NCBI GenBank assembly: GCA_031969635.1
Contig: DALYJW010000078.1
Coordinates: 1-18,236, forward strand
Reading direction: 5' to 3'
Source of the DNA: Phormidiaceae cyanobacterium CTOTU46630
GTDB taxonomy: Bacteria > Cyanobacteriota > Cyanobacteriia > Cyanobacteriales > Aerosakkonemataceae
DNA: 18,236 bases
Under the pieces are notes generated by a model. It worked only from the letters and a program-made list of their open reading frames with translations. It did no database searches and was not told the origin of the DNA. Positions 6,516 to 10,460 of the stretch are shown here, one piece after another. The first letter of the stretch is position 1; every line of letters starts with the position of its first letter. The position numbers and the translations under genes were made by a program.

Positions 6516-7307
6516 ATGAAACGCATTGTTCTAATCGCTGGGTTTGAATCCTTCAACGCTGACTTGTACCGGAAAGCCGCACAGTTAGCGAATTCCCGCT
6601 GTCCGGAGTTGGATGTGCGGGTGTTTAGCGATCGCGCCCTCAACACCTCACCGCAAGTCGTCGCCGACGCCCTCAAAGGCGCAGATGTCTTCTTCGCCAG
6701 TTTAATCTTTGACTACGACCAAGTGATGTGGTTGCGCGAAAGAGTGCAGCACATCCCCATCCGCCTCGTCTTCGAGTCAGCCTTAGAATTGATGAGTTTA
6801 ACTCAAATTGGTGCCTTCAAAATTGGCGATAAACCAAAAGGAATGCCCAAACCCGTTAAATTCATTTTAGATAAATTCAGCAACGGCAAAGAAGAAGACA
6901 AACTCGCCGGTTATATCAGCTTCCTAAAAGTAGGGCCAAAACTATTAAAATACGTCCCAGTACAAAAAGTTCAAGACTTGCGAAACTGGCTGATTATTTA
7001 CGGTTACTGGAACGCTGGCGGCACAGATAACGTCGCCTCCATGTTCTGGACAATAGCAGAAAAATATCTGGAATTAAAAGTAGGAGAAATCCCGCCCCCA
7101 GTCGAAACCCCCAACATGGGTTTGTTACATCCTGAATATCAAGGCTATTTTGAATCGCCGCGCCAATATTTAGAATGGTATCGGCGCAGATTTGTAGGGG
7201 CGGGTTTCACCAATAACCTTACAACTCAAACAGATAACTTAAATAAACCCGCCCCGCTTGTAGGGGCGGGTTTCACCAATAACCTTACAACTCAAACAGA
7301 TAACTAA
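6516..7307 (+). CDS. Mg-chelatase H subunit / CobN-family chelatase paralog, N-terminal segment. It ends at an in-frame TAA inside an inserted repeat
   Basis: The N-terminus matches ChlH domain order. Motifs: FASLIF, LKVGPKLLKYVPVQKVQDLRNWLIIYGYWNAGG, YLEWYRRR. It is in the same frame as 7308..10460 (both starts are 0 mod 3). Confidence 0.8.
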   Translation: MKRIVLIAGFESFNADLYRKAAQLANSRCPELDVRVFSDRALNTSPQVVADALKGADVFFASLIFDYDQVMWLRERVQHIPIRLVFESALELMSLTQIGAFKIGDKPKGMPKPVKFILDKFSNGKEEDKLAGYISFLKVGPKLLKYVPVQKVQDLRNWLIIYGYWNAGGTDNVASMFWTIAEKYLELKVGEIPPPVETPNMGLLHPEYQGYFESPRQYLEWYRRRFVGAGFTNNLTTQTDNLNKPAPLVGAGFTNNLTTQTDN

Positions 7308-7325
7308 AATAAACCCGCCCCGACT
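7194..7325. mobile_element. Two tandem copies of a 66-bp hairpin (MITE-like) element inserted in frame in the chelatase gene
   Basis: Copy 1 spans 7194-7259 and copy 2 spans 7260-7325. Each is gtaggggcgggtttcaccaataaccttacaactcaaacagataac(t/a)taaataaacccgccccg..., with an 11-bp terminal inverted repeat GGGGCGGGTTT / AAACCCGCCCC. Copy 2 differs by TTA to TAA, which creates the only stop. The flanking protein sequence (YLEWYRRR .. DKKEELPLTSPVVGILLYRKHVV) is contiguous with ChlH homology. Confidence 0.75.
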
Positions 7326-7478
7326 TGCGACCAAGATAGCAGAGGAACGGACAAAAAAGAAGAATTACCACTTACCAGTCCAGTAGTTGGAATCTTACTT
7401 TATCGCAAACACGTCGTAACCAAACAGCCTTATATTCCAAAATTAATTAACTACTTTGAGCAAGCCGGACTTATTCCC

Positions 7479-10460
7479 TTGCCCATCTTTATCAATGGCG
7501 TTGAAGCTCATGTTGCTGTACGAGATTGGATGACAAGTTCCCACGAACAAGCGATAATTAAATTAGCAAAAGGGGAAACCAGCAAACCTCAGATGCCATT
7601 AGGCGTTGATCAAGAAGCTGGTCGCCAAATAGAGGTGTCGAAACGGATTAGCTCCCCTTTTGCTACCCTCTCCAAAGAAGCCGTAGAAGTAGATGCAATT
7701 GTCTCTACCATTGGTTTCCCGTTAGTAGGTGGCCCTGCTGGTTCAATGGAAGCCGGGCGCCAAACAGAAATAGCTGTTAAAATTTTAACTGCCAAAAATA
7801 TACCTTACATCGTTGCCGCACCCTTGCTAATTCAAGATATCCATTCTTGGACGCGCCAAGGTATTGGGGGATTGCAAAGTGTCGTATTATATGCCTTGCC
7901 AGAATTAGATGGAGCCATTGATACAATACCTTTAGGCGGTTTAGTAGGAGAAGATATTTATCTGATTCCCGAACGAGTCAAGCGTTTAACTGGCAGATTG
8001 AAAAATTGGATTGAATTAAGACAAAAACCTGCCTCTGAACGCAAAGTTGCCATTCTTCTCTACGGCTTCCCGCCTGGATATGGTGCAACGGGAACGGCTG
8101 CATTATTAAACGTCCCCCGCAGTTTGCTTAAATTACTCCAAGCACTCAAAGAACAAGGTTACACAATCGGCGAATTACCCGAAGATGGAGAAGAATTAAT
8201 CCGCCGCGTTAAACAAGCAGATGAACCTCAAATTCGTAGCCAAGAAGAACCAGTTATTGACTCGATACTTGATGGAAACGAATACAACACCGTCAACGCC
8301 AAAACTCTAGATAAATGGCTGGGATACCTACTAACAACCCGCATCGAAAAGCAGTGGAAATCTCTCACCAGCAGCGGCATCAAAACCTATGGAGATGAAT
8401 ATCATATCGGCGGTATTGAGTTAGGAAATATTTGGATCGGCGTGCAACCACCATTGGGAATTGCAGGCGATCCGATGCGGCTAATGTTTGAACGGGATAT
8501 GACGCCTCATCCTCAATATGCTGCTTTTTATAAATGGTTGCAAAATGAGTTTCAAGCCGATGCTGCGATCCACTTTGGAATGCACGGTACGGTTGAATGG
8601 TTGCCCGGATCTCCGTTAGGAAATACAGGTTATTCTTGGCCTGATATTTTATTGGGAGATATTCCCAATTTGTATATCTATGCGGCAAATAATCCGTCTG
8701 AATCTATCTTGGCGAAGCGTCGCGGTTATGGGGTGCTGATTTCTCACAACGTGCCGCCTTATGGGAGGGCGGGGTTGTATAAGGAATTGGTGGCGCTGCG
8801 AGATTTAATCTCAGAATATCGAGAAGATCCGCAAAAGAATTATGCGCTTAAGGAGGCGATTTGTAAGAAGATTGTCGATACTGGATTGGATGCCGATTGT
8901 GCGTTTGAGGATGCTAAAAAGTTGGGGATTTCTTTTACGCCGGAGAATGTCCGGATGTTCAGCGCCCATGCATTTAATGATTATTTAGTCAAGTTGTACG
9001 AGTATTTGCAAGTGTTGGAAACTCGTCTGTTTTCTTCGGGGTTGCATACGCTGGGTGAACCTCCGACGGATGAGGAGTTGGCATCGTATTTTGATGCTTA
9101 TTTTGGAGAGGAAGATAACGAACCGCCAAGACGCCAAGAACGCCAAGAAGAGGAGAGAAGGATTGGAGATTTGTTGGGGCAGAATACGGAGGAGTTGAGG
9201 AATTTGTTGCGGGGGTTGAATGGGGAGTATATTCCTCCTGCACCGGGGGGCGATCTGTTAAGAGATGGTGCGGGTGTTTTGCCTACGGGGCGGAATATTC
9301 ATGCTTTAGATCCTTATAGGATGCCTTCTGCTGGTGCTTACGAACGGGGGAGGGAAATTGCCCGGAAAATTATCGATCAACACTTAGAAGAACATGGGGA
9401 ATATCCGGAGACGGTTGCTGTTATGTTGTGGGGGTTGGATGCGATTAAAACTAAGGGTGAATCTTTGGGGATTTTGTTAGAGTTGGTGGGTGCTGAACCC
9501 GTCAAGGAAGGTACGGGGCGGATTGTGCGTTATGAGTTGAAATCTTTGGAGGAAGTTGGGCATCCTCGGATTGATGTATTGGCTAATCTTTCGGGGATTT
9601 TTCGCGATAGTTTTGTCAATATTATTGAGTTGTTAGATGACTTGTTTCAACGGGCGGCGGATGTTGATGAACCGGAGGAGATGAATTTTATCAGGAAACA
9701 TGTTTTGGGGATGCGCGAGCAAAATATCCCCAATCCCACTGCGCGTCTATTCTCGAACCCCGCTGGCGATTTTGGTTCGCTAGTAAATGAGCGAGTGACT
9801 GATGGAAATTGGGACTCTGGAGAAGAGTTGGCGGATACTTGGTCAAGTCGCAATGCTTTCAGTTACGGCAGAAATGATAAAGGTCAATCTCGCAAGGCAG
9901 TTTTAAACCAACTGTTGCAAACTACTCGCCGCGTGGTGCAAGAAATTGATTCGGTTGAATATGGTTTAACCGATATTCAAGAATATTATGCCAATACGGG
10001 TGGTTTGAAAAAGGCGGCGGAGAAACAACAAGGTAAGAAAGTTAATGCTAGTTTTGTCGAAAGTTTCTCGAAAGATACAACGCCGCGCAATTTAGAAGAT
10101 TTGCTGAGGATGGAATATCGCACGAAGCTATTAAATCCTAAATGGGCAGATGCAATGGCAAATCAAGGTAGCGGCGGCGCGTATGAAATTTCGCAGCGAA
10201 TGACGGCATTAATTGGTTGGGGCGGTACGGCTGATTTTACTGATAATTGGGTTTACGATCAGGCGGCGGATACTTATGCTTTGGATGCAGAAATGGCGAA
10301 GAAATTGCGAGAGGCAAATCCGGAAGCTTTTCGCAATATTATCGGCAGAATGTTAGAAGCGCATGGACGGGGTTTCTGGGAAGCCGATCCGGAGAAGTTA
10401 CAGAAGTTGCGCGAATTGTATGAGTTGACAGATGAAGAATTAGAAGGCGTGACAGTTTGA
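7479..10460 (+). CDS. Mg-chelatase H subunit / CobN-family chelatase paralog, main segment. The open frame actually extends back to 7308
   Basis: Collinear with ChlH. Motifs: VDAIVSTIGFPLVGGPAG, ALPELDGAIDTIPLGG, FPPGYGATGTAALLNVP, GVQPPLGIAGDPMRLMF, HFGMHGTVEWLPGS, YIYAANNPSESILAKRRGY, LPTGRNIHALDP, ETVAVMLWGLDAIKTKGESLG, GHPRIDVLANLSGIFRD. The C-terminus DNWVYDQAAD...EAHGRGFWEADPEKLQKLRELYE is also collinear. The annotated start is a TTG. Confidence 0.85.
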   Translation: MPIFINGVEAHVAVRDWMTSSHEQAIIKLAKGETSKPQMPLGVDQEAGRQIEVSKRISSPFATLSKEAVEVDAIVSTIGFPLVGGPAGSMEAGRQTEIAVKILTAKNIPYIVAAPLLIQDIHSWTRQGIGGLQSVVLYALPELDGAIDTIPLGGLVGEDIYLIPERVKRLTGRLKNWIELRQKPASERKVAILLYGFPPGYGATGTAALLNVPRSLLKLLQALKEQGYTIGELPEDGEELIRRVKQADEPQIRSQEEPVIDSILDGNEYNTVNAKTLDKWLGYLLTTRIEKQWKSLTSSGIKTYGDEYHIGGIELGNIWIGVQPPLGIAGDPMRLMFERDMTPHPQYAAFYKWLQNEFQADAAIHFGMHGTVEWLPGSPLGNTGYSWPDILLGDIPNLYIYAANNPSESILAKRRGYGVLISHNVPPYGRAGLYKELVALRDLISEYREDPQKNYALKEAICKKIVDTGLDADCAFEDAKKLGISFTPENVRMFSAHAFNDYLVKLYEYLQVLETRLFSSGLHTLGEPPTDEELASYFDAYFGEEDNEPPRRQERQEEERRIGDLLGQNTEELRNLLRGLNGEYIPPAPGGDLLRDGAGVLPTGRNIHALDPYRMPSAGAYERGREIARKIIDQHLEEHGEYPETVAVMLWGLDAIKTKGESLGILLELVGAEPVKEGTGRIVRYELKSLEEVGHPRIDVLANLSGIFRDSFVNIIELLDDLFQRAADVDEPEEMNFIRKHVLGMREQNIPNPTARLFSNPAGDFGSLVNERVTDGNWDSGEELADTWSSRNAFSYGRNDKGQSRKAVLNQLLQTTRRVVQEIDSVEYGLTDIQEYYANTGGLKKAAEKQQGKKVNASFVESFSKDTTPRNLEDLLRMEYRTKLLNPKWADAMANQGSGGAYEISQRMTALIGWGGTADFTDNWVYDQAADTYALDAEMAKKLREANPEAFRNIIGRMLEAHGRGFWEADPEKLQKLRELYELTDEELEGVTV

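Follow-up and report, generated by a model that had tools for sequence, protein, structure and literature searches.

Is a gene whose only stop codon lies inside a tandem hairpin repeat broken, or has its protein taken up the repeat? The question is raised by Phormidiaceae cyanobacterium CTOTU46630, of which we analyzed one stretch of 18,236 nucleotides (GenBank assembly GCA_031969635.1, contig DALYJW010000078.1, positions 1 to 18,236; hereafter the window). Two consecutive open reading frames (ORFs) of this window share one frame and together resemble a magnesium chelatase subunit H (ChlH/BchH); the first of them ends within the second of two 66-nt hairpin units. We consider it rather probable that a dispersed hairpin repeat was inserted in frame into a permissive linker of this gene, was tolerated there and was later duplicated, and that the stop is either young or artefactual.

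A dispersed hairpin repeat inside a chelatase frame

The two ORFs are jointly collinear with the BchH profile TIGR02025: the N-terminal piece matches profile positions 1-231, and the C-terminal piece alone reaches 1341.8 bits (cut-off 829) and extends to profile position 1271. The Pfam domains of the split gene are DUF3479 and CobN-Mg_chel. A single TAA is the only stop in an otherwise open frame of 1314 codons (6516-10460), and outside the repeat the gene shows no further defect, with one mismatch in 3.7 kb relative to the sibling assembly L003 (GCA_003486305.1). The collinearity of the two same-frame ORFs with subunit H had been proposed in an earlier reading of the letters alone (the sequence-only reading), and the profile search bears it out.

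Tandem Repeats Finder (TRF) describes the segment 7192-7327 as 2.0 copies with a period of 66 nt and a match of 97%; a repeat search delimits two head-to-tail copies of 65 nt (7192-7256 and 7258-7322) with an identity of 98%. The T>A change at 7306 is the sole difference inside these 65-nt copies. The ends of the units differ as well, with GC after copy 1 and GAC after copy 2 (7322-7324), the latter being the typical tail of the repeat family; hence the period of 66 nt. The junction between the copies reads CCCCGCTTGTAGGGG. Each unit has perfect inverted arms of 11 nt (GGGGCGGGTTT/AAACCCGCCCC), or of 14 nt with one mismatch, around an A/T-rich loop of 37 nt – the unit can also be written TGTAGGGGCGGGTTT...AAACCCGCCCC – and the exact arm sequence is found four times in the window, where 0.28 occurrences are expected. 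Both programs agree with the earlier description of two 66-nt tandem units with inverted arms and one change from TTA to TAA as the only stop, and the peptide given for copy 1 was correctly translated; the peptide covering the insert is VGAGFTNNLTTQTDNLNK. Five of the six frames of the 66-nt unit contain stops; the chelatase gene uses the one that is free of them.

Copies of the element exist elsewhere as well. When 185,579 species-representative genomes were scanned with the pattern GGGGCGGGTTT-N25-50-AAACCCGCCCC, at least 120 stretches in many cyanobacterial genomes matched; nearly all matches listed belong to filamentous cyanobacteria, among them the genera Microcoleus, Coleofasciculus, UBA11372, UBA11344, Okeania, Floridaenema, Rhizonema and Pseudanabaena. 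The matches listed include 130 copies of 54-63 nt, which have the arms and the motif TTT(T/C)AC in common and very diverse loops; with a stem of 10-11 bp and a loop of 35-37 nt, the element measures about 65 nt overall. Directly 5' of the arm, at positions that were not part of the search pattern, the nucleotides T, G, T and A are found in 66, 84, 86 and 83 of 87 copies, respectively, so that G, T and A at -3 to -1 and the invariant first G of the arm form a conserved GTAG tag. The other end has a weaker (G/C)AC tail, and farther out there is no conservation. The consensus of the family is (T)GTAG-GGGCGGGTTT-[variable loop ~36 nt]-AAACCCGCCC(C)-(G/C)AC. At eight of the listed loci, two copies lie at most 150 nt apart. 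It had been asked whether copies are preferentially in frame; on the contrary, the family is strongly depleted from genes, with 4.6% of the copies within ORFs of at least 200 codons as against 66% of random positions at the same loci.

The host gene and its inter-domain linker

Orthologues of the host gene are found in Planktothrix, Moorena, Coleofasciculus, Microcoleus, Aphanizomenon, Fischerella and others, with mostly 60-77% identity for those in other cyanobacterial orders; the protein-homologue search returned only partial orthologues of up to 79%, the protein of the organism itself not among them, and look-ups of the exact products of the two ORF halves gave no match. The ChlH equivalog profile NF009140 (PRK12493) gives 879 and 102 bits for the two pieces, under its cut-off of 1300, and the Synechocystis ChlH structure 4ZHJ matches the first 550 aa with only 170 bits. 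Because of the score below the NF009140 cut-off and the low score against 4ZHJ, the host gene is a member of a widely conserved BchH-type paralogue lineage that is distinct from canonical cyanobacterial ChlH. The earlier naming of the gene as ChlH therefore holds for the ChlH/BchH family, not for the subfamily, since this paralogue is distant from Synechocystis ChlH.

The insertion lies in a linker between two anchors, ...SPRxYLEWY and (V/I)VGILLYRKH, which are conserved in all orthologues. In the 83 of 120 orthologues in which both anchor motifs were found, the two are separated by 6 to 73 aa; in many the linker has only 6-12 aa, with nothing that resembles the insert. In Synechocystis ChlH, the counterpart of the linker is residues ~278-289, a place at which the alignment is interrupted between two matched blocks, and it is on this mapping to 4ZHJ and on the variation in length that the argument for a permissive loop is based. 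Other translated repeats occupy the same linker in orthologues (GQDARSTK, LQDVHPTK, CRDAINRVS, VGAxxExPL): NGQDARSTK stands three times in a Microcoleus orthologue, LQDVHPTK five times in one from Aphanizomenon, and CRDAINRVS(T) is at times in tandem. Furthermore, the repeat family of the window itself is present in this linker in two other organisms, in the same orientation in one (L129) and, decayed, in the opposite orientation in the other (L130); the opposite orientation means that at least that insertion was independent. Judged by these comparisons, the linker is a permissive and recurrent landing place for repeats.

Could the 44 residues instead be native protein sequence, i.e. an internal protein repeat and not inserted DNA? 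The segment is in frame, and it lies in a linker whose length varies among orthologues. Yet the same nucleotide element, with arms and tag conserved, occurs at 120 or more mostly intergenic loci and in unrelated genes, and the linkers of 6-12 aa hold nothing similar. On the strength of the dispersed copies and the short orthologue linkers we rejected this explanation, which we take to be next to impossible.

The element is also translated elsewhere. In a Phormidiaceae genome (L061), the gene of a two-domain ABC ATPase carries a copy of a near-identical subfamily in its inter-domain linker, in the same frame (VGAGFTDHLTTQTDNLNKPAPL). The same frame is used by three tandem copies of the subfamily in a Coleofasciculus protein (P0122) and by several copies, some complete and some partial, in a WD40-repeat protein of 1771 aa (P0123). 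Family members whose loops differ from those of the window are in frame in an outer-membrane-type protein (L106) and in the HypF carbamoyltransferase gene of Coleofasciculus sp. C1-SOL-03 (L037, ~5070-5210), where the copy and a partial tandem duplicate encode GGGFSHIRVTNNDNSQT twice. These translated copies are a matter of survivorship: genes lose most of the insertions they receive, and what persists are the insertions with an open frame at tolerant linkers. A wider hypothesis, which we find rather doubtful, would make the repeats an undescribed family similar to repetitive extragenic palindromic (REP) elements, with a GTAG tag, a long stem and an exchangeable loop; its open-frame subfamily (VGAGFT..L..QTDNL.KPAP) would time and again settle in the inter-domain linkers of large proteins and amplify there in tandem as a ready-made disordered module, and the linker of the ChlH paralogue would be a phylum-wide hot-spot where one or two copies, with or without the stop, would occur within one population.

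Two side observations concern the host protein. After its conserved VK.ADE motif, the ChlH paralogue has a second hypervariable segment, which holds translated repeats in several species (GQDARSTK, SNQQPAT twice, IQNSKFKIQN; e.g. orthologues P0004, P0009, P0012, P0024 and P0101) and is short in the window protein. A native coding segment some 100 nt before the insertion, GAAATCCCGCCCCC (conserved EIPPPV motif; 7088-7098, minus strand), equals the right arm of the element with one mismatch, a likeness that is probably due to chance; the segment 7085-7112 forms a weak antisense terminator-like hairpin.

Table 1. Positions of the split chelatase gene, its linker and the repeat array within the window.
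Feature	Position	Strand	Remarks
N-terminal ORF	6516-7307	+	263 aa: DUF3479 and start of CobN-Mg_chel; terminates at TAA within copy 2
Continuation of the frame, remainder of the chelatase H-like protein	7308-10460	+	1050 codons, no stop
Hypervariable inter-domain linker	7182-7385	+	between conserved motifs YLEWY and VGILLYRKH
Native linker parts	7182-7193; 7326-7385	+	RRRF (7182-7193); CDQDSRGTDKKEELPLTSPV (7326-7385)
Repeat copy 1, 66-nt unit	7192-7257	+	GTAG tag 7194-7197, hairpin core 7197-7255; translated as VGAGFTNNLTTQTDNLNKPAPL
Repeat copy 2, 66-nt unit	7258-7323	+	GTAG tag 7260-7263, hairpin core 7263-7321
Junction palindrome, tandem state only	7245-7273		right arm of copy 1 and left arm of copy 2; 11-bp stem, 7-nt loop
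Stop TAA	7305-7307	+	TTA to TAA by T>A at 7306; TTA in copy 1, L001 and L003

History of the locus and status of the stop

Sibling assemblies, reached through a neighbouring protein, are 99.97-100% identical to the window. Besides the three described next, the sibling samples include GCA_036726825.1, SRR6488295 and ERZ27299535. L001 (GCA_003501785.1, 99.97%) has one copy with TTA, and its gene is called intact with 1292 aa; L003, also 99.97% identical, has two copies, both with TTA and neither with a stop. In L002 (GCA_003501795.1), a gap of Ns lies within the repeat, and the right edge of the gap shows the TAA and a mismatch at 7313. Two further contigs (L127 and L128), obtained from a metagenome scan with the left flank, represent a relative with a DNA identity of about 94-96%; in both, a single copy of unchanged sequence occupies this very site, and the gene, of 1268 aa, is intact. 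Copy 2 is hence absent from L001, L127 and L128, and in L003 it is free of the stop. Between this relative and the window, the gene has diverged with a dS of 0.22 and a dN/dS of 0.12. The identity of the element itself (no real difference in 66 nt) is not significant as a signal, as 11% of the 66-nt windows of the gene are equally free of differences.

The relative also helps to place the borders of the insertion. Its CDQDSSGS matches the native CDQDSRGT of the window linker (7326-7349), and the units end at about 7323; the boundaries YLEWYRRR and DKKEEL that had been drawn earlier are thus off by eight residues on the right side. The inserted residues are no native sequence, as the orthologue linkers of 6-12 aa confirm. 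The idea that an in-frame insertion was tolerated before the stop arose fares well: the one-copy allele sits in an intact gene with a dN/dS of 0.12, and a two-copy allele without stop exists in L003. The gene is functional with its insert, now or until very recently. From these alleles the order of events is a single in-frame copy that is older than the split of the lineages and has stayed in a gene under purifying selection, then a recent duplication, and then the TAA, which is not fixed.

How might this have come about? We propose that a mainly intergenic hairpin repeat landed in its single stop-free orientation and frame (one of six) in the hypervariable linker of the paralogue and was carried along as 22 additional residues. 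In the lineage of the window, a tandem duplication could then have arisen by slippage or by unequal exchange at a flanking microhomology, since in the one-copy allele TTG stands on both sides of the element (TTG-TA[59 nt]GAC-TTG). An exchange at TTG would copy the 67-nt span TTGTA...GAC and shift the frame; a junction that has lost one base (GC for GAC) would give the in-frame period of 66 nt, and selection for an intact protein would retain such a product. The TAA in copy 2 would be the latest step, either a very young nonsense polymorphism or an error of consensus or assembly. The array has a predicted fold of -47.3 kcal/mol (z = -5.5), in which the junction palindrome dominates, and this palindrome probably makes the array prone to slippage, as the folding model would have it; the expected instability fits the variation between one and two copies among near-identical assemblies.

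The same fold could be read as a sign of function: the array would regulate as a structure in RNA or DNA, or switch through its copy number, and would modulate expression or yield a separate N-terminal DUF3479 protein, the rest being made by readthrough or restart. Copy number and stop do vary among near-identical populations, and hairpin repeats have been gained repeatedly in the same linker across cyanobacteria. On the other hand, no Rfam family is matched by the window, the gene offers neither a suitably placed start codon nor a sense-strand terminator (the junction hairpin is terminator-like on the antisense strand only), and many orthologues have no insert at all. Moreover, the contents of the linker belong to unrelated families across orthologues, which is more in keeping with tolerance than with a conserved function. 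We regard a function of the array as very unlikely.

What is more difficult is the interpretation of the TAA. One explanation is a sequencing or consensus artefact in an intact gene with a 44-aa insert, caused by a sequence-specific Illumina error after the GGC-rich inverted repeat or by cross-mapped reads from another copy of the family. Read on the reverse strand, the change at 7306 is GGGGCGGGTTTATTT[A>T]AG and the change at 7313 in L002 is GGGGCGGG[T>G]TT; in both cases, the wrong base equals the preceding one and follows directly upon the GGC-rich palindrome. Sequence-specific Illumina errors reportedly show the pattern seen at 7306 and 7313. A recurrence of such errors across runs would explain a TAA in two assemblies, though a real polymorphism would equally give one base change in both. 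The siblings L001 and L003 read TTA, and the remaining window-specific differences all lie in repeats. An artefact seems to us well possible, to a degree not far short of even.

Alternatively, the TAA may be real and fixed in the strain of the window, as the mark of a young pseudogene of a dispensable ChlH paralogue that was burdened first by the duplication and then by the nonsense change, or as the result of gene conversion from a copy with CTAAAAT. The TAA at the gap edge of L002, on another background of single-nucleotide polymorphisms (SNPs), speaks for this explanation; some family copies carry ...CTAAAATAAACCCGCCCC (e.g. L110; also written CTAAAATAAACCC), so that conversion is possible, and as the gene is a paralogue and not canonical ChlH, its loss may be tolerable. 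The first in-frame ATG, GTG or TTG after the TAA is at 7479, past conserved residues; with no start before it, no sensible C-terminal product is to be expected, and the gene would be dead in that strain if the stop is real. Against a pseudogene stand the lack of a second lesion in 3.9 kb and the dN/dS of 0.12. In L001 and L003 the TTA is linked to the right flank, all other differences between window and siblings are in repeated DNA, which suggests repeat-related consensus problems, and the end of L002 adjoins an N-gap and has the second mismatch (7313) close by. We hold a real, fixed stop to be conceivable, with some doubt. Of the suspicion that the stop is a sequencing error, there remains that the siblings have TTA while L002 has TAA; a real variant and an artefact are about equally probable.

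Several points weigh against our interpretation as a whole. The same TAA in the window and in L002, on differing SNP backgrounds, argues against a random error. An empty site was not found in a close relative, which leaves the precise borders of the insertion, and the first event itself, to inference. The differences in copy number were seen in metagenome assemblies built from short reads, in which perfect repeats of 65 nt may be collapsed or mis-threaded, and the variation between one and two copies may instead reflect such a collapse. No transposase recurs beside the copies when ORFs of at least 90 aa are clustered over 120 loci of ~8 kb each, a weak test. Finally, the sizes of stem and loop are atypical of classical REPs.

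Relation to known repeats and significance

REPs with a GTAG tag, and the REP doublets forming hairpins (REPINs), are thought to be mobilised by REP-associated tyrosine transposases (RAYT) (Di Nocera et al. 2013, PMC3733652; Bertels & Rainey 2011, PMC3116915), and GTAG REPs have already been reported in cyanobacteria (PMC3733652). Their hallmarks are the terminal GTAG, an extragenic bias, the lack of a duplication, pairing and occasional intragenic in-frame copies (PMC3733652). Our element has a conserved GTAG directly 5' of a GC-rich stem, and its opposite end bears a short conserved tail like that of the families GTAG-1 and GTAG-2; it is mostly extragenic, often paired, free of target-site duplications and occasionally in frame within genes. 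It differs in its stem of 10-11 bp, its variable loop of 35-37 nt and its length of ~65 nt, while described REPs have stems of 6-9 bp, mostly tiny loops and a total of 20-40 bp (PMC3733652). A mobilisation of the REP/RAYT kind would suit these likenesses; in the weak test that 120 sampled loci of ~8 kb each allow, there is no recurrent family of small HUH/Y1-like (RAYT) ORFs and no RAYT gene near the sampled copies. TnpB-like ORFs of the IS200/IS605 type occur at four of these 120 loci (L012, L086, L090 and L102), none adjacent to the repeats, and probably reflect their background abundance in cyanobacteria.

The element had been called 'MITE-like', after miniature inverted-repeat transposable elements. 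Bacterial MITEs, which include the cyanobacterial Nezha and those of Microcystis and Anabaena, can disrupt genes or fuse with them (reviewed in PMC3184786, PMC10969869). The likeness lies in a small, non-coding, multi-copy element that ends in inverted repeats and forms a stable hairpin. The present element is much shorter than Nezha (130-170 bp), it has no identified parent insertion sequence, and the GTAG tag is no feature of MITEs. No target-site duplication is detectable in 86 oriented copies with any combination of offset and length; the best excess of flanking direct repeats is a dinucleotide (13 observed, 6.8 expected). The inverted arms thus stand as a MITE trait, and the conserved GTAG tag and the missing target-site duplication suggest the REP type rather than a MITE; on sequence features, we call the element REP-like or MITE-like, with membership of either class unproven. 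A literature search for the arm sequence gave irrelevant matches only.

A third comparison, by description only, is with the small dispersed repeats (SDR) of heterocyst-forming cyanobacteria, which are said to have been described in Nostocales and to be very small elements that sit within hairpins, flanked by conserved inverted repeats and with a central segment that can be exchanged. Conserved arms and a variable loop are what our family would share with them; it is found mainly in Microcoleus- and Coleofasciculus-type genomes.

In their effect on proteins, the closest counterparts are the Rickettsia palindromic elements (RPE), characterized as 'selfish DNA in protein-coding genes' (Ogata et al. 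2000, cited in PMC3733652, PMC3184786). As far as these citing papers describe them, the likeness is an in-frame palindromic repeat in a functional ORF that adds a peptide at a tolerant surface or linker position, and one element that is translated in several unrelated proteins; here, the one-copy allele is in frame and the gene intact in L001, L127 and L128. RPEs belong to another phylum, are unrelated in sequence and measure ~100-150 nt as against 66 nt; most of the cyanobacterial copies lie between genes, and those within genes are often arrayed in tandem.

Some further features of the window deserve mention. An 874-aa ORF at 329-2953 (minus strand) has a counterpart in L001 with the Pfam domains Vault, Vault_2/3/4 and MVP_shoulder, i.e. 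a major-vault-protein homologue in a cyanobacterium. At 10510-13392 (minus strand), a 960-aa protein combines tetratricopeptide repeats (TPR) with a CHAT domain, and the tandem repeats of 120/246 nt that TRF reports at 12530-12978 are its TPR units. An intergenic, perfect tandem repeat of 20 nt in 2.5 copies (CATTATTTAAAATTATTTGC; 14476-14525) lies upstream of a PD-(D/E)XK-like gene (14634-15281), and the whole block of genes at ~10503-15356 is absent from the relative L127. TRF also finds a perfect 106-nt repeat in two tandem copies at 16511-16719, with AGAAACC(C/G)GGTTTCT hairpins; the alignments of L001-L003 are interrupted at 16533-16697, and that of L004 ends at 16613 and resumes at 16617. 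This is another repeat that varies in copy number or is unstable in assembly. Six other window-specific SNPs (16313-4 and 16846-76) are near it, in repeated DNA.

That functional genes can hold palindromic repeats which are translated in frame is well known, both for the RPEs of Rickettsia and for intragenic REPs (PMC3733652, PMC3184786). The novelty is modest: a repeat family of unusual architecture, an open-frame subfamily that recurs in tandem in protein linkers, and a hot-spot linker. The family, which lies outside the published size range of REPs, involves no new mechanism and may be of interest to those who study REPs and RAYTs. For annotation, since near-identical populations have intact alleles with one and two copies, the split chelatase gene should be taken neither for two genes nor for a firmly dead gene. 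It is a clean and datable case of selfish hairpin DNA joining a protein, with an old copy, a duplication and a nonsense change, and it shows how a single linker of a widely conserved ChlH paralogue has taken in many unrelated repeats across the cyanobacteria.

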